Below the pieces are notes generated by a model, which was given only the letters and a program-made list of their open reading frames with translations, had not been told where the DNA came from and made no database searches. A stretch of DNA of 64,000 nucleotides. Origin: Escherichia coli. Its GTDB lineage: Bacteria > Pseudomonadota > Gammaproteobacteria > Enterobacterales > Enterobacteriaceae. Below are positions 36,120 to 45,719 of the stretch, one piece after another. Location of the stretch: NCBI RefSeq assembly GCF_030013595.1, contig NZ_CP122768.1, one strand, 5' to 3'. How positions within the stretch are numbered: the first letter of the stretch is position 1; each line of letters opens with the position of its first letter. Made by a program: the position numbers and the translations under genes.

Positions 36120-37514
36120 ATGCCATTTAAAAAACTCTCCCGACGCACGTTCCTGACGGCAAGCTCGGCGCTTGCCTTCCTCCATACCCCTTTCGCTCGC
36201 GCACTTCCCGACCAACAGAGCGTTAACATTAACGACTACAACCCACACGACTGGATCGCCTCATTTAAACAAGCCTTCAGCGAAGGGCAAACGGTCGTCG
36301 TGCCTGCCGGATTCGTTTGTGACAATATCAACACCGGCATCTTCATTCCTCCTGGCAAAACGTTACACATCCTCGGAAGCCTGCGAGGCAACGGCAGAGG
36401 GCGATTTGTCTTACAGGACGGCAGCCAGGTGACAGGGGAGAAGGGCGGCAGTATGCATAACATCACCCTGGATGTGCGTGGTTCTGACTGCACCATCAAA
36501 GGGCTGACGATGAGCGGCTTTGGCCCGGTGACGCAGATCTATATCGGCGGCAAAAACAAACGGGTCATGCGTAACCTGACCATCGATAACCTGACCGTTA
36601 GCCACGCTAATTACGCCATCTTACGCCAGGGATTTCATAACCAGATAATCGGTGCCAACATCACCAATTGTAAGTTCAGCGACTTACAGGGCGATGCCAT
36701 TGAATGGAACGTGGCGATTAACGACCGCGATATTTTGATATCCGACCACATCATCGAGCGCATCAACTGTACCAACGGCAAAATCAACTGGGGCATCGGC
36801 ATAGGCCTTGCGGGAAGCACTTACGATAATAATTACCCAGAAGATCAGGCAGTGAAAAACTTTGTCGTAGCGAATATCACGGGATCGGATTGTCGGCAGT
36901 TGATCCATGTTGAAAATGGTAAACATTTTGTTATTCGTAATATCAAAGCCCGCAATATCACGCCGGATTTCAGTAAGAAAGCAGGCATTGATAACGCGAC
37001 AGTTGCTATTTACGGTTGTGACAATTTCGTGATTGATAATATTGAAATGATTAATAGCGCCGGGATGTTAATCGGCTATGGGGTAATTAAAGGCAAATAT
37101 CTCTCGATACCGCAAAATTTCCGAGTGAATAATATTCAACTGGATAACACCCATCTTGCTTATAAATTGCGCGGCATCCAAATCTCCGCCGGGAATGCTG
37201 TCTCCTTTGTGGCGCTGACTAACATTGAGATGAAGCGTGCCTCGCTGGAGCTTCACAATAAACCGCAACATCTTTTTATGCGTAATATCAAAGTGATGCA
37301 GGAATCCTCAGTTGGACCAGCATTGAGCATGAACTTCGACATGCGCAAAGACGTACGCGGTGTCTTTATGGCGAAAAAAGAAACACTGCTGTCACTTGCA
37401 AATGTTCATGCGATGAATGAAAGAGGGCAAAGCTCCGTCGACATCGACAGGATTAATCACCATATTGTTAATGTGGAAAAGATTAACTTTAGATTGCCGG
37501 AACGGAGAGAGTAG
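36120..37514 (+). CDS. wcaM: Colanic acid biosynthesis protein, Tat-signal, beta-helix-like
   Basis: 464 aa; twin-arginine-like signal [15 protein letters not shown]. Confidence 0.9.
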
Positions 37515-37671
37515 ATTTGCGACCATTCATAAACTTACTGGATATAATGTTCTAAAAGATTATAATCCTCACACTAACTGTTAAAGCTGGGGCTGGGCAG
37601 CATTGACTACTCAGGGAAGGTACTCATCTTTATCTTGTGTTTCTTACGTAACAACCAGACTAAAGTGATTT

Positions 37672-38667
37672 ATGAACGATAACGTTTTGCTCATAGGAGC
37701 TTCCGGATTCGTAGGAACCCGACTACTTGAAACGGCAATTGCTGACTTTAATATCAAGAACCTGGACAAACAGCAGAGCCACTTTTATCCAGAAATCACA
37801 CAGATTGGTGATGTTCGTGATCAACAGGCACTCGACCAGGCGTTAGCCGGTTTTGACACTGTTGTGCTACTGGCAGCGGAACACCGCGATGACGTCAGCC
37901 CTACTTCTCTCTATTATGATGTCAACGTTCAGGGTACCCGCAATGTGCTGGCGGCCATGGAAAAAAATGGCGTTAAAAATATCATCTTTACCAGTTCCGT
38001 TGCTGTTTATGGTTTGAACAAACACAACCCTGACGAAAACCATCCACACGACCCTTTCAACCACTACGGCAAAAGTAAGTGGCAGGCAGAGGAAGTGCTG
38101 CGTGAATGGTATAACAAAGCACCAACAGAACGTTCATTAACCATCATCCGTCCTACCGTTATCTTCGGTGAACGGAACCGCGGTAACGTCTATAACTTGC
38201 TGAAACAGATCGCTGGCGGCAAGTTTATGATGGTGGGCGCAGGGACTAACTATAAGTCCATGGCTTATGTTGGAAACATTGTTGAGTTTATCAAGTACAA
38301 ACTGAAGAATGTTGCCGCAGGTTATGAGGTTTATAACTACGTTGATAAGCCAGACCTGAACATGAACCAGTTGGTTGCTGAAGTTGAACAAAGCCTGAAC
38401 AAAAAGATCCCTTCTATGCACTTGCCTTACCCACTAGGAATGCTGGGGGGCTATTGTTTTGATATCCTGAGCAAAATTACGGGCAAAAAATACGCTGTCA
38501 GCTCAGTGCGCGTGAAAAAATTCTGCGCAACAACACAGTTTGACGCAACGAAAGTGCATTCTTCAGGTTTTGTGGCACCGTATACGCTGTCGCAAGGTCT
38601 GGATCGAACTCTGCAGTATGAATTCGTTCATGCCAAAAAAGACGACATAACGTTTGTTTCTGAGTAA
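37672..38667 (+). CDS. gnu: NAD-dependent 4-epimerase of the Gne/Gnu family (GlcNAc-PP-Und to GalNAc-PP-Und)
   Basis: 331 aa; MNDNVLLIGASGFVGTRLLETA Rossmann start, YxxxK (YGKSK) catalytic motif; location between wcaM and galF as in several non-K-12 E. coli serogroups; composition more AT-rich than flanking genes. Confidence 0.75.
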   Translation: MNDNVLLIGASGFVGTRLLETAIADFNIKNLDKQQSHFYPEITQIGDVRDQQALDQALAGFDTVVLLAAEHRDDVSPTSLYYDVNVQGTRNVLAAMEKNGVKNIIFTSSVAVYGLNKHNPDENHPHDPFNHYGKSKWQAEEVLREWYNKAPTERSLTIIRPTVIFGERNRGNVYNLLKQIAGGKFMMVGAGTNYKSMAYVGNIVEFIKYKLKNVAAGYEVYNYVDKPDLNMNQLVAEVEQSLNKKIPSMHLPYPLGMLGGYCFDILSKITGKKYAVSSVRVKKFCATTQFDATKVHSSGFVAPYTLSQGLDRTLQYEFVHAKKDDITFVSE

Positions 38668-38909
38668 TGCAGACGAGTCAGAGAAAAAAGGACCAGGTTG
38701 GACTACGATTATTCGGAAAGAGGTACTGATTAAATTATCAGTATGCGGAATTCCGAGTAATCCGAGTAACCCAGATGCTGATGGTGTGTAGTGTTATCCT
38801 AAGGTTTAAGCAAAGTTATGCGGAACTAAGCTTTGGTATATAGCCATAACGTTTGGCTAACCTATGGCAATAATTTACGCACTATCAGCCACTTAGAGGT
38901 AGGAAAAGA

Positions 38910-39803
38910 ATGACGAATTTAAAAGCAGTTATACCGGTAGCAGGTCTTGGGATGCATATGTTGCCTGCCACTAAGGCGATTCCCAAAGAGATGCTACCGA
39001 TCGTCGACAAGCCAATGATTCAGTACATTGTTGACGAGATTGTGGCTGCAGGGATCAAAGAAATCCTCCTGGTAACTCATGCGTCCAAGAACGCGGTCGA
39101 AAACCACTTCGACACCTCTTATGAATTAGAATCTCTCCTTGAACAGCGCGTGAAGCGTCAACTACTGGCGGAAGTACAATCTATCTGTCCGCCGGGCGTG
39201 ACCATTATGAACGTGCGTCAGGGTGAACCTTTAGGTTTAGGCCACTCCATTTTATGTGCGCGACCTGCCATTGGTGACAATCCATTTGTCGTGGTGCTGC
39301 CAGACGTTGTGATCGACGACGCCAGCGCCGACCCGCTACGCTACAACCTTGCTGCCATGATTGCGCGCTTCAATGAAACGGGCCGTAGCCAGGTGCTGGC
39401 AAAACGTATGCCGGGTGACCTCTCTGAATACTCCGTCATCCAGACCAAAGAACCGCTGGACCGTGAAGGCAAAGTCAGCCGCATTGTTGAATTTATCGAA
39501 AAACCGGATCAGCCGCAAACGCTGGACTCAGACATCATGGCCGTAGGTCGTTATGTGCTTTCTGCCGATATTTGGCCGGAACTTGAACGCACTCAACCTG
39601 GTGCATGGGGGCGTATTCAGCTGACTGATGCTATTGCCGAACTGGCGAAAAAACAGTCCGTTGATGCCATGCTGATGACTGGTGACAGCTACGACTGTGG
39701 TAAAAAAATGGGCTATATGCAGGCATTCGTGAAGTATGGATTACGCAACCTGAAAGAAGGGGCGAAGTTCCGTAAAGGGATTGAGAAGCTGTTAAGCGAA
39801 TAA
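38910..39803 (+). CDS. galF: UTP-glucose-1-phosphate uridylyltransferase paralogue
   Basis: 297 aa; [43 protein letters not shown]. Confidence 0.95.
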
Positions 39804-40061
39804 TGAAAATCTGACCGGATGTAACGGTTAATAAGAAAATTATAACGGCAGTGAGGATTCGTGGCGAAAGTAATTTGTTGCGAATATTCCTGCCGTTGTT
39901 TTATATAAACAATCAGAATAACAACGAGTTAGCAATAGGATTTTAGTCAAAGTTTTCCAGGATTTTCCTTGTTTCCAGAGCGGATTGGTAAGACAATTAG
40001 CTTTTGAATTTTTCGGGTTTAGCGCGAGTGGGTAACGCTCGTCACATCGTAGGCATGCATG

Positions 40062-40100
40062 CAGTGCTCTGGTAGCTGTAAAGCCAGGGGCGGTAGCGTG
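40062..40100 (+). promoter_or_regulatory. JUMPStart element with ops site upstream of the O-antigen operon
   Basis: cagtgctctggtagctgtaaagccaggggcggtagcgtg; contains GGCGGTAGCGTG; 76 bp upstream of rfbB start. Confidence 0.88.
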
Positions 40101-40175
40101 CATTAATACTTCTATTAATCAAACTGAGAGCCGCTTATTTCACAGCATGCTCTGAAGCAATATGGAATAAATTAG

Positions 40176-41261
40176 GTGAAAATACTTGTTACTGGTGGCG
40201 CAGGATTTATTGGTTCTGCTGTAGTTCGTCACATTATAAATAATACGCAGGATAGTGTTGTTAATGTCGATAAATTAACGTACGCCGGAAACCTGGAATC
40301 ACTTGCTGATGTTTCTGATTCTGAACGCTATGTTTTTGAACATGCGGATATTTGCGATGCAGCTGCAATGGCACGGATTTTTGCTCAGCATCAGCCAGAT
40401 GCAGTGATGCACCTGGCTGCTGAAAGCCATGTTGACCGTTCAATTACAGGTCCTGCGGCATTTATTGAAACCAATATTGTTGGTACATATGTCCTTTTGG
40501 AAGCCGCTCGCAATTATTGGTCTGCTCTTGATAGCGACAAGAAAACTAGCTTCCGTTTTCATCATATTTCTACTGACGAAGTCTATGGTGATTTGCCTCA
40601 TCCTGACGAGGTAAATAATACAGAAGAATTACCCTTATTTACAGAGACAACAGCTTACGCGCCAAGCAGCCCTTATTCCGCTTCAAAAGCATCCAGCGAT
40701 CATTTAGTCCGCGCGTGGAAACGTACCTATGGTTTACCAACCATTGTGACTAATTGCTCTAACAATTATGGTCCTTATCATTTCCCGGAAAAATTGATTC
40801 CATTGGTTATTCTCAATGCTCTGGAAGGTAAGGCATTACCTATTTATGGCAAAGGGGATCAAATTCGTGACTGGCTGTATGTTGAAGATCATGCGCGTGC
40901 GTTATATACCGTCGTAACCGAAGGTAAAGCGGGTGAAACTTATAACATTGGTGGACACAACGAAAAGAAAAACATCGATGTAGTGCTCACTATTTGTGAT
41001 TTGCTGGATGAGATTGTACCGAAAGAGAAATCTTACCGCGAGCAAATTACTTATGTTGCCGATCGCCCGGGACACGATCGCCGTTATGCGATTGATGCAG
41101 AGAAGATTAGCCGCGAATTGGGCTGGAAACCGCAGGAAACGTTTGAGAGCGGGATTCGGAAGACAGTGGAATGGTACCTGTCCAATACAAAATGGGTTGA
41201 TAATGTGAAAAGTGGTGCCTATCAATCGTGGATTGAACAGAACTATGAGGGCCGCCAGTAA
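40176..41261 (+). CDS. rfbB: dTDP-glucose 4,6-dehydratase
   Basis: 361 aa, GTG start; [31 protein letters not shown] catalytic motif. Confidence 0.95.
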
Positions 41262-42163
41262 TGAATATCCTCCTTTTCGGCAAAACAGGGCAGGTAGGTT
41301 GGGAACTACAGCGTGCTTTGGCACCTTTAGGTAATTTGATTGCTCTTGATGTTCACTCCACTGATTATTGTGGTGATTTTAGTAATCCTGAAGGTGTAGC
41401 TGAAACAGTCAAAAGAATTCGACCTGATGTTATTGTTAATGCTGCGGCTCACACCGCAGTAGATAAGGCTGAGTCAGAACCCGAATTTGCACAATTACTC
41501 AATGCGACTAGTGTTGAATCAATTGCAAAAGCGGCTAATGAAGTTGGGGCTTGGGTAATTCATTACTCAACTGACTACGTATTCCCTGGAAATGGCGACA
41601 CGCCATGGCTGGAGACGGATGCAACCGCACCGCTAAATGTTTACGGTGAAACCAAGTTAGCCGGAGAAAAAGCGTTACAGGAACATTGCGCGAAGCATCT
41701 TATTTTCCGTACCAGCTGGGTATACGCAGGTAAAGGAAATAACTTCGCCAAAACGATGTTGCGTCTGGCAAAAGAGCGCGAAGAACTGGCTGTGATAAAT
41801 GATCAATTTGGTGCGCCAACAGGTGCTGAGCTGCTGGCTGATTGTACGGCACATGCTATTCGTGTGGCACTGAATAAACCGGAAGTCGCAGGTTTGTACC
41901 ATCTGGTAGCCAGTGGTACCACAACCTGGCACGATTATGCTGCGCTGGTTTTTGAAGAGGCGCGCAAAGCAGGTATTCCCCTTGCACTCAACAAGCTCAA
42001 CGCAGTACCAACAACAGCCTATCCTACACCAGCTCGTCGTCCACATAACTCTCGCCTTAATACAGAAAAATTTCAGCAGAACTTTGCGCTTGTCTTGCCT
42101 GACTGGCAGGTTGGTGTGAAACGAATGCTCAACGAATTAATTACGACTACAGCAATTAAATAG
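41261..42163 (+). CDS. rfbD: dTDP-4-dehydrorhamnose reductase
   Basis: 300 aa; [20 protein letters not shown]. Confidence 0.95.
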   Translation: MNILLFGKTGQVGWELQRALAPLGNLIALDVHSTDYCGDFSNPEGVAETVKRIRPDVIVNAAAHTAVDKAESEPEFAQLLNATSVESIAKAANEVGAWVIHYSTDYVFPGNGDTPWLETDATAPLNVYGETKLAGEKALQEHCAKHLIFRTSWVYAGKGNNFAKTMLRLAKEREELAVINDQFGAPTGAELLADCTAHAIRVALNKPEVAGLYHLVASGTTTWHDYAALVFEEARKAGIPLALNKLNAVPTTAYPTPARRPHNSRLNTEKFQQNFALVLPDWQVGVKRMLNELITTTAIK

Positions 42164-42217
42164 TTTTTGCATCTTGTTCGTGATGGTGGAGCAAGATGAA
42201 TTAAAAGGAATGATGAA

Positions 42218-43096
42218 ATGAAAACGCGTAAAGGTATTATTTTAGCGGGTGGTTCTGGTACACGTCTTTATCCTGTGACTATGGCTGTCAGTAAACAGCT
42301 ATTACCTATTTATGATAAGCCGATGATCTATTACCCGCTCTCTACACTGATGTTGGCGGGTATTCGCGATATTCTGATTATTAGTACGCCACAGGATACT
42401 CCTCGTTTTCAACAACTGCTGGGTGACGGTAGCCAGTGGGGGCTAAATCTTCAGTACAAAGTGCAACCGACTCCAGATGGGCTTGCGCAGGCGTTTATTA
42501 TCGGTGAAGAGTTTATCGGTGGTGATGATTGTGCTTTGGTTCTTGGTGATAATATCTTCTACGGTCATGATCTGCCGAAGTTAATGGATGTCGCTGTTAA
42601 CAAAGAAAGTGGTGCAACGGTATTTGCCTATCACGTTAATGATCCTGAACGCTACGGTGTCGTTGAGTTTGATAAAAACGGTACGGCGATCAGCCTGGAA
42701 GAAAAACCGCTACAACCAAAAAGTAATTATGCGGTAACCGGGCTTTATTTCTATGATAACGACGTTGTCGAAATGGCGAAAAACCTTAAGCCTTCTGCCC
42801 GTGGTGAACTGGAAATTACCGATATTAACCGTATTTATATGGAACAGGGGCGTTTATCCGTTGCCATGATGGGGCGTGGTTATGCATGGCTGGATACGGG
42901 GACACATCAGAGTCTTATTGAAGCAAGCAACTTCATTGCCACCATTGAAGAGCGCCAGGGACTAAAGGTTTCCTGCCCAGAAGAAATTGCTTACCGTAAA
43001 GGGTTTATTGATGCTGAACAGGTGAAAGCATTAGCGGAGCCGCTGAAAAAAAATGCTTATGGACAGTATCTGCTGAAAATGATTAAAGGTTATTAA
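42218..43096 (+). CDS. rfbA: Glucose-1-phosphate thymidylyltransferase
   Basis: 292 aa; [17 protein letters not shown]. Confidence 0.95.
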
Positions 43097-43100
43097 TAAA

Positions 43101-43658
43101 ATGAACGTAATTAAAACAGAAATTCCTGATGTGTTAATTTTCGAGCCGAAAGGTTTTGGTGATGAGCGTGGTTTCTTTATGGAAAGCTTTAATCAGAAAG
43201 TTTTCGAAGAAGCTGTAGGACGTAAGGTTGAATTTGTTCAGGATAACCATTCGAAGTCTAGTAAAGGTGTTTTACGCGGGCTGCATTATCAGTTAGAACC
43301 TTATGCGCAAGGGAAATTGGTACGTTGCGTTGTTGGTGAGGTTTTTGATGTAGCTGTTGATATTCGTAAATCGTCGCCTACCTTTGGTAAATGGGTTGGG
43401 GTGAATTTATCTGCTGAGAATAAGCGGCAATTGTGGATCCCTGAGGGATTTGCACATGGTTTTTTGGTGCTGAGCGAGACTGCGGAATTTTTATATAAAA
43501 CGACGAACTATTATCATCCTGATAGTGATAGAGGGATTGTATGGAATGATCCTATTCTGAGCATAAAATGGCCGACGATAGAACATAATAATTATATTTT
43601 ATCGATTAAAGATGCAAGGGCTAAAGAATTGCATAACATGAAGGAATTATTTTTGTGA
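43101..43658 (+). CDS. rfbC: dTDP-4-dehydrorhamnose 3,5-epimerase
   Basis: 185 aa; cupin-fold sequence VLRGLHYQLEPYAQGKLVRCVVGEVFDVAVDIR. Confidence 0.95.
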   Translation: MNVIKTEIPDVLIFEPKGFGDERGFFMESFNQKVFEEAVGRKVEFVQDNHSKSSKGVLRGLHYQLEPYAQGKLVRCVVGEVFDVAVDIRKSSPTFGKWVGVNLSAENKRQLWIPEGFAHGFLVLSETAEFLYKTTNYYHPDSDRGIVWNDPILSIKWPTIEHNNYILSIKDARAKELHNMKELFL

Positions 43659-44887
43659 GTATTGTAAAGAATACTTTATGGAATATAAGTGGGTATATTA
43701 TACCATCATTAATAGCAATTCCTGCGTTAGGTATACTGTCTAGAATTCTAGGGGCCGAGCAATTTGGCCTTTTTACGTTAGCTATTGCCTTAGTTGGATA
43801 TGCAAGTATTTTTGATGCTGGATTGACCAGAGCTGTTATAAGAGAAGTATCAATATATAAAAATGTTCATAAAGAATTAAGATCGATCATTTCAACTTCA
43901 ACGGTAATTCTAACTATATTGGGCTTGATTGGCGGTAGTGTATTATTTTTGAGTAGCAATGTAATTGTTAAATTATTAAACATTAACGCGAATCATGTTG
44001 TAGAATCTGTCAAAGCAATATATATTATTTCAGCTACCATACCCTTATACTTGTTAAACCAAGTCTGGTTGGGGATTTTTGAGGGGATGGAAAAGTTCAG
44101 AAAAGTAAATTTAATAAAATCAATTAACAATTCTTTTGTGGCTGGATTACCAGTGATTTTCTGTTTTTTTCATGGAGGATTACTAAGTGCCATATATGGT
44201 TTAGTTATGGCAAGAGTCTTATCACTTATAGTGACCTTTATATTTAGTCGAAAACTAATAATATCATCTGGGCTGTCTGTAAAAATTGTAACAGTTAAAA
44301 GATTAATCGGCTTTGGAAGCTGGATAACAGTTAGCAATATTATTAGCCCTATTATGACATATATGGATCGTTTTATTCTTTCACACATTGTGGGGGCTGA
44401 TAAAGTTTCTTTTTATACTGCTCCGTCTGAAGGTATACAACGCTTAACGATATTACCAAGTGCGTTGTCCAGAGCTATTTTTCCAAGATTAAGTTCAGAA
44501 TTGCAATCGGTAAAGCAAACTAAAATATTATCATATTTTATAATGGTTATTGGTATACTTCCAATTGTAATTTTGATAATTATTTTATCAGATTTTATAA
44601 TGTCCGCTTGGATGGGACCTACATATCATGGGACGCCAGGTATAGTATTAAAAATTCTTGCAATAGGTTTCTTTTTTAATTGCATTGCACAAATCCCATT
44701 TGTTTCAGTTCAGGCTAGTGGAAGATCAAAAATTACAGCTATTATTCATTTGCTCGAAGTTATCCCATATTTATGCATATTATATATTTTTATTTATCAT
44801 TGGGGAATTGTTGGAGCCGCAATAGCATGGTCTGTAAGAACATCGTTAGATTTTTTGATATTATTATTAATTGATAAGAAATATTAA
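43655..44887 (+). CDS. wzx: O-antigen flippase (Wzx family polytopic membrane protein)
   Basis: 410 aa, GTG start overlapping rfbC stop; strongly hydrophobic, many predicted TM helices; visibly AT-rich codon usage. Confidence 0.8.
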   Translation: MSIVKNTLWNISGYIIPSLIAIPALGILSRILGAEQFGLFTLAIALVGYASIFDAGLTRAVIREVSIYKNVHKELRSIISTSTVILTILGLIGGSVLFLSSNVIVKLLNINANHVVESVKAIYIISATIPLYLLNQVWLGIFEGMEKFRKVNLIKSINNSFVAGLPVIFCFFHGGLLSAIYGLVMARVLSLIVTFIFSRKLIISSGLSVKIVTVKRLIGFGSWITVSNIISPIMTYMDRFILSHIVGADKVSFYTAPSEGIQRLTILPSALSRAIFPRLSSELQSVKQTKILSYFIMVIGILPIVILIIILSDFIMSAWMGPTYHGTPGIVLKILAIGFFFNCIAQIPFVSVQASGRSKITAIIHLLEVIPYLCILYIFIYHWGIVGAAIAWSVRTSLDFLILLLIDKKY

Positions 44888-44942: not shown

Positions 44943-45719
44943 ATGACTTCTGATTTTTATAACTCAAAAGACAAAAGTTTAAGTGTTCTTTTGTTTTTTG
45001 GGTTTATATTTTTCCTTACACGTAGCTTTCCATTTATTCAATATAGTTGGATTATGGGGGGGTTTTTATGTCTTTGTATCATGTCATTTACAAAGAAAAT
45101 TGCAAACGGAATATATCACTATCCTGTTATTTTAATATTTCTATTAGCTCTTTTTATAAATTTTATTTATTCCTATATCAAGGGTAACGATATAGCGATA
45201 ATAATTAGGTTTTATATTATCATATTATTTATATTATGTGCTTATTTTTGCTCTTATGGAACCATCTCGATTGTTAAAATATTTTTATATTTAATGGTAT
45301 TACAGGCGGTTATTATATCCATCATTAGTATTTATATGACAAAAACATATGGTATTGGTGATTATTCAGCACTAAGACATTATTTTTTGGAGAATGATTA
45401 TGGTGATGTTTATACATATGGAAGTGGTTTCTATAGAGTTCAAATTAAAGGAAATGCTCTCATTCCATTTGCCTTTATGTTGCATATAGTCATAAAAGAT
45501 TATTTCTATTATCGATTCAAAAATACAATAACCGTTATTCTGGCTATAGGTACTATAGTGGCTGGTAATTTTGCATATTTTGTTTCGATATGCTTGTTTT
45601 TTATGTATATTATACTATGTTCTAAATCTAACTCACGATACGCTAAATTAAGGAAAATTATTTTTGGGGTTTTTCTTACTGTGATTCTCCCTTTTTTATT
45701 ACATATTCAATTGAGTTGA
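44943..45719 (+). CDS. wzy: Wzy-like O-antigen polymerase, N-terminal portion (258 aa); likely the first part of a frameshifted gene
   Basis: Very hydrophobic, multiple TM helices with one larger loop (YGIGDYSALRHYFLENDYGDVYTYGSGFYRVQIKGN); too short for a complete Wzy. Confidence 0.5.
   Translation: MTSDFYNSKDKSLSVLLFFGFIFFLTRSFPFIQYSWIMGGFLCLCIMSFTKKIANGIYHYPVILIFLLALFINFIYSYIKGNDIAIIIRFYIIILFILCAYFCSYGTISIVKIFLYLMVLQAVIISIISIYMTKTYGIGDYSALRHYFLENDYGDVYTYGSGFYRVQIKGNALIPFAFMLHIVIKDYFYYRFKNTITVILAIGTIVAGNFAYFVSICLFFMYIILCSKSNSRYAKLRKIIFGVFLTVILPFLLHIQLS

Follow-up and report, generated by a model that had tools for sequence, protein, structure and literature searches.

The gene now called gnu was first named gne and taken to encode a UDP-GlcNAc 4-epimerase (Wang et al. 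2002), whereas the O157 enzyme was later reported to be inactive on UDP-GlcNAc and to convert UndPP-GlcNAc to UndPP-GalNAc after WecA (Rush et al. 2010); both studies are cited here as they are presented in PMC3682973. Cunneen et al. (2013) gave the gene its present name, with O157 as the reference strain (PMC3682973), its position just upstream of galF has been described as a marker of GalNAc-initiated O units (Liu et al. 2019, PMC7685785), and a 2021 paper annotated the wcaM-gnu-galF arrangement in a new serogroup. The Gne1 protein of E. coli O86:B7 is identical to that of O157, but O86 has in addition a true gne, which lies within the O-antigen cluster and serves a second GalNAc residue (PMC3682973). 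Gnu of Yersinia pseudotuberculosis (O3, O6, O7, O10 and others) belongs to the same clade, presumably catalyses the same reaction and shows an absolute correlation with GalNAc as first sugar, yet it is only about 50% identical and its gene lies inside the O-antigen cluster instead of upstream of galF (PMC3682973). More distant are GalE/Gne (clade A) and the GnaB enzymes WbpP and TviC (clade B), which have in common with Gnu the extended-SDR fold, a Ser/Tyr/Lys triad and C4 epimerisation via a 4-keto intermediate, but which, according to the literature, act on nucleotide-linked sugars, while the substrate of Gnu is lipid-linked.

The DNA analysed here, a stretch of 64,000 nucleotides from Escherichia coli that we refer to as the window, has a gene of this kind at the expected place. 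The features around it are as follows:

36120..37514 (+): wcaM, the last gene of the colanic acid cluster (NF007517, 1023.9 bits)
37515..37671 (+): wcaM-gnu spacer, 157 bp, 36.9% GC, holding a sigma-70-like site
37672..38667 (+): gnu, a 331-aa extended SDR, very probably a GlcNAc-PP-undecaprenol 4-epimerase (open reading frame and identity to WP_000999466.1)
38668..38909 (+): gnu-galF spacer, 242 bp
38910..39803 (+): galF (TIGR01105, 689 bits)
40062..40100 (+): JUMPstart element containing the GGCGGTAG core (Rfam RF01707, 60 bits, E = 1.5e-12)

A sequence-only reading of the window had described a 331-aa epimerase between wcaM and galF, at a junction that is empty in K-12. The open reading frame list of the window contains exactly such a gene, starting with ATG, and the RefSeq CDS coordinates of a genome that is 100% identical over the stretch agree with it. 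In K-12, the gap between wcaM and galF measures 174 bp and holds no gene, as had been stated. When K-12 and the window are aligned, however, homology ends about 14 nt past the wcaM stop codon and returns only in the last ~40 nt ahead of the galF ATG, so the K-12 spacer is unrelated sequence and not a clean empty site. At gnu, we found neither flanking direct or inverted repeats nor insertion sequences or their remnants as signs of mobile insertion. The junction is filled in 1307 of 5426 complete E. coli genomes (24%); the genomes sampled from the lower ranks of the search match just the wcaM and galF ends. The reading had further called gnu more AT-rich than its neighbours. This holds marginally for whole genes, with 45.4% GC for gnu compared to 47.6% for wcaM and 50.4% for galF, but not against the final 500 bp of wcaM, which at 42.4% GC exceed gnu in AT content; the statement was too strong. 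Within the gnu-galF spacer, we also noted a short tandem duplication at 38750-38775, in which TCCGAGTAA occurs twice, and an AT-rich hairpin, TACTGAT-loop-ATCAGTA, at about 38722-38743.

The encoded protein is 100% identical to WP_000999466.1, which occupies the same wcaM-galF locus in two independent O157:H7 genomes, neither of them EDL933, and whose CDS is also found at this locus in the O147 strain CV839-06. Its NCBI (PGAP) name is GlcNAc-PP-undecaprenol 4-epimerase. At the nucleotide level, the window gene differs from the O157 allele at 11 sites, all of them third codon positions and all synonymous. The O157:H7 gene is presumably the one with locus tag Z3206 in strain EDL933, and we take the EC number of the enzyme to be 5.1.3.26. 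Exactly this protein sequence occurs on at least 1000 contigs, and its 90% identity cluster has 2299 members. As the O86:B7 protein is identical to that of O157, Gne1 of O86 should also be the same protein as the one in the window. The claim that sequence and position mark the gene as a Gnu family member is thereby borne out, and the assignment to clade D of Cunneen et al. (2013) follows from the identity with the O157 protein. We therefore regard the open reading frame, with high confidence, as gnu, encoding a GlcNAc-PP-undecaprenol 4-epimerase, its activity being taken from the literature on the O157 protein. It is an already known gene in its known place, and the finding is correct but ordinary.

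The reading of the locus that prevailed in 2002 would make the protein a classical Gne, which converts UDP-GlcNAc to UDP-GalNAc, after which WecA would transfer GalNAc-1-P directly. The original gne name rested on the assumption of such an activity (Wang et al. 2002, as cited in PMC3682973), and some entries in the 90% cluster still carry the name 'UDP-N-acetylglucosamine 4-epimerase'. For the O157 protein, however, with a sequence identical in two O157:H7 genomes to that of the window, no activity on UDP-GlcNAc was reported (Rush et al. 2010, in the account of PMC3682973), and E. coli O86 needs this gene plus a true gne (PMC3682973). Comparisons with the two nucleotide-sugar clades point in the same direction. 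Although the protein is an extended SDR by its match to the Pfam Epimerase family (PF01370, 107.6 bits; 3Beta_HSD, 95.7 bits), it reaches only 71.4 bits against the GalE model TIGR01179, the cut-off of which is 262.3, and this over residues 5-170 only; PRK10675 gives 56 bits against a cut-off of 394, and E. coli GalE structures match with 47.5 bits over residues 45-167, about one third of the protein. It thus lacks the full-length, above-threshold GalE similarity of clade A. The same applies to the TviC and WbpP similarity of clade B: the TviC model NF011728 has no match to Gnu at E<=0.001, and WbpP and WbgU are absent among the 60 best PDB sequence matches. As controls, NF011728 scores 121 bits and WbpP/WbgU score 127-139 bits against the other epimerase of the window. 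The comparison of Gnu with GalE/Gne paralogues that the sequence-only reading had suggested thus comes out in favour of Gnu, with the O157:H7 protein as the best homologue.

The structural evidence is consistent with this outcome. Gnu contains the Rossmann motif G9xxG12xxG15, S108 and Y132xxxK136, the signature that, together with PF01370, defines an extended SDR. In an alignment of 79 relatives at 34-57% identity, taken from 365 family clusters, G9, G12, S108 and Y132 do not vary, at least 90% of the sequences have K136, and the YxxxK motif aligns with that of the solved epimerase 8rdg. An AlphaFold2 model (pLDDT 96.8) shows the extended-SDR fold. The PDB contains no solved structure of Gnu or a close relative, the top sequence matches being at about 66 bits, and the solved folds closest to the model are NDP-sugar 4-epimerases and dehydratases. 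That the nearest folds include UDP-sugar 4-epimerases could be read in favour of a classical Gne, but these matches reach just TM 0.72-0.76 at about 20% identity, which is the distance that also separates Gnu from GalE/Gne and WbpP/TviC. Overall, we consider a classical Gne at this locus very unlikely.

Whether the strain makes use of its Gnu depends on the O antigen encoded beyond galF. Over the serogroup-specific part, the window matches six complete genomes with at least 99.9% identity, all of them annotated as O147, and by this sequence match its O-antigen cluster is that of O147. It comprises, with the genes that follow:

40176..43658 (+): rmlB, rmlD, rmlA and rmlC, for dTDP-L-rhamnose synthesis (NCBIfam equivalogs above their cut-offs)
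43655..44887 (+): wzx, O147 flippase
44943..46129 (+): wzy, O147 polymerase, two open reading frames in the window (44943..45719 and 45716..46129)
46140..47015 (+): family-2 glycosyltransferase, rhamnosyltransferase-like
47012..47845 (+): second family-2 glycosyltransferase
47950..49356 (+): gnd
49578..50771 (+): ugd (open reading frame as listed)
50837..51841 (-): NAD-dependent epimerase between ugd and wzz
52193..53227 (+): wzz (open reading frame as listed)

The distance of 'about 5 kb' that had been given between gnu and the O-antigen cluster is right for the serogroup-specific genes, which begin with wzx at 43655, but not for the usual start of the cluster, since rmlB at 40176 lies only 1.5 kb downstream.

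The O147 unit has been described as ->2)-a-L-Rha-(1->2)-a-L-Rha-(1->4)-b-D-GalA-(1->3)-b-D-GalNAc-(1->, which equals the unit of Shigella flexneri 6 without acetylation (PMC4206707). In Table S2 of Cunneen et al., O147 is entered as 'need gnu', with a single GalNAc in the main chain and no GlcNAc (PMC3682973). Besides rmlBDAC, wzx, wzy and two glycosyltransferase genes, the cluster contains nothing, and neither an initiating transferase nor a GalE-like gne is found in it. Since GalNAc is the sole HexNAc of the unit and the cluster lacks both of these genes, O147 needs the Gnu step after WecA. This is the configuration known for Gnu-dependent clusters, with a GalNAc-initiated unit, wzx and wzy and no initiating transferase, the sugar structure being that of the literature. 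The functional link across galF that the sequence-only reading had drawn, and the GalNAc that it expected in the O unit, are therefore both supported. With respect to its closest relative, the window thus agrees with O157:H7 in the protein, in the wcaM-galF position and in an O unit with GalNAc as sole HexNAc, and differs in the 11 synonymous substitutions and in that its gnu is linked to an O147 instead of an O157 cluster; compared to O86, O147 has no gne in the cluster and needs none.

Two further observations concern the remaining sugars of the unit. The two glycosyltransferase genes of the cluster (46140-47845) face three linkages after the first O147 sugar, and O147 has been counted among the clusters with one glycosyltransferase fewer than expected (Liu et al. 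2019, PMC7685785). The epimerase on the minus strand at 50837..51841 matches the Klebsiella structure 5u4q with 634 bits, followed by the Bacillus cereus UDP-GlcA 4-epimerase (6zl6/6zla) with 151 bits. Judged by these similarities, it is probably a UDP-GlcA 4-epimerase (Gla/Uge) and supplies the UDP-GalA from which the GalA of O147 derives. Like gnu, this second epimerase gene linked to the O antigen lies outside the galF-gnd interval.

It seemed conceivable that gnu had been carried into this background by recombination with galF-flanking DNA and is a passenger, dispensable for the O antigen of the strain. Cunneen et al. recorded gnu or gne where it was not predicted in 10 cases, and where it was expected but missing in 7 (PMC3682973), and among neighbouring serogroups the gnu-galF-rmlBDAC block is conserved at 96-98% identity. 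Furthermore, gnu does not share the transcriptional control of the O-antigen genes: the JUMPstart element belongs to the leader of the O-antigen operon and is located in the galF-rmlB interval, 3' of both gnu and galF, which places gnu outside the RfaH-controlled operon. In an Rfam scan of 37000..40600, nothing besides JUMPstart was detected. The wcaM-gnu spacer contains a sigma-70-like site, TGGATA-16-TATAAT at 37539..37566, a consensus match that makes it a possible promoter of gnu itself, and no convincing intrinsic terminator was found in the gnu-galF spacer. The gene is thus probably transcribed from its own promoter or via read-through from the colanic acid genes. Against a passenger, however, stands the need of the strain for a source of Und-PP-GalNAc, given that GalNAc is the only HexNAc of O147 and that no initiating transferase or gne is at hand in the cluster. 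In addition, gnu is intact in all six complete O147 genomes, and the contrast of 11 synonymous to zero non-synonymous differences from the O157 allele speaks for a gene in use. We therefore attach hardly any probability to dispensability and favour a Gnu that serves the O147 cluster.

The profile searches raised one other option, namely a lipid-active SDR of another type, for instance a reductase of the hopanoid or olefin type or an enzyme resembling sterol dehydrogenases. The highest scores for Gnu were indeed obtained with lipid-active SDRs and not with GalE (HpnA, 95.5 bits; OleD-type reductases, 74 and 68 bits; 3Beta_HSD, 95.7 bits), and a sterol-4-alpha-carboxylate 3-dehydrogenase ranks second among the PDB sequence matches; but all profile scores are far below the family cut-offs (for HpnA, 95.5 against 367.65), for which reason we rejected these functions. 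Gnu is favoured by the position of the gene, by the match to the O157 enzyme and by the link to GalNAc, which leaves this option next to no probability. E. coli is not known to make hopanoids or sterols. Taken together, the three alternatives account for well under a tenth of the probability.

Distant members of the Gnu family, with domains at 39-48% identity, also occur as parts of larger proteins (P0154, P0161, P0202, P0203 and P0262; locus L005, 6001-7944): four are fused with GT4 glycosyltransferases and one with a Bac_transf initiating transferase, the latter on a metagenomic contig, in a polysaccharide locus beside genes resembling those for diacetamido-sugar synthesis. The matches to lipid-SDR profiles and the fusions to GT4 and Bac_transf domains would fit a lipid-linked substrate of Gnu, but they are no proof of it.

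For the gene itself, the O147 genomes stand in contrast to the published record. In the 2013 PCR survey, O147 was scored as 'gnu missing' (Table S2 of Cunneen et al., PMC3682973), whereas gnu is present in the window and in each of the six complete O147 genomes. One O157-based reverse primer, with its site at 38446-38463, differs from the window allele at three positions, two of which lie no more than six bases from the 3' end of the primer, while the other three of the four O157-based gnu/galF primers match the window exactly, including both primers of the gnu-galF pair. A PCR artefact may explain the missing score, but we would put this forward only tentatively. In any case, the window and all complete O147 genomes examined call for a small correction of the literature, in which O147 is listed as an exception that lacks gnu. 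If the score was indeed an artefact, gnu would mark GalNAc-initiated units more strictly than published.

In the window, wzy is interrupted. A run of six T at about 45692-45697 splits it into open reading frames of 258 and 137 aa, while CV839-06, against which we located the indel, has seven T at this run and a single wzy of 395 aa; each of the six O147 genomes is one base longer than the window over the matched span. This is either a real frameshift, which would make the strain semi-rough, or a homopolymer sequencing error. If real, the strain may not polymerise its O units. Even so, the loss of Wzy would leave Gnu needed for the single O unit.

We propose the following route for the initiation of the O147 unit. 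WecA, the gene of which lies elsewhere in the genome, would form Und-PP-GlcNAc on the inner side of the cytoplasmic membrane, and Gnu would act on it as a soluble or peripheral NAD-bound extended SDR. We found no transmembrane or strongly amphipathic segment in the protein, the highest hydropathy value (1.45) falling on a Rossmann strand and no hydrophobic moment standing out, so that contact with the substrate presumably takes place at the membrane surface. There Gnu would oxidise the lipid-linked GlcNAc at C4, giving a 4-keto intermediate, which would then be re-reduced from the opposite face to yield Und-PP-GalNAc, a hydride transfer that probably involves Ser108, Tyr132 and Lys136. We infer this NAD-mediated 4-keto chemistry from the Rossmann motif, the conserved triad, the confident model and the similarity to 4-epimerase folds. 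The O147 glycosyltransferases would next extend this sugar with GalA and two rhamnose residues, after which Wzx, Wzy and Wzz would complete the polymer. It is possible, though on balance doubtful, that Gnu works within a membrane-bound initiation complex with WecA and the first glycosyltransferase, and that it has a lipid-pyrophosphate site different from the pocket in which GalE-type enzymes bind the nucleotide. We raise this because the Gnu family is without a solved structure, its structural neighbours are as remote as TM ~0.75, and its distant members are fused to initiating transferase and GT4 domains.

Gnu can serve in E. coli to engineer glycans that are initiated with GalNAc. For annotators, the presence of gnu indicates that the O unit starts with a GalNAc made on the lipid carrier, and once it is recognised, the biological repeat unit is fixed for both O147 and Shigella flexneri 6.
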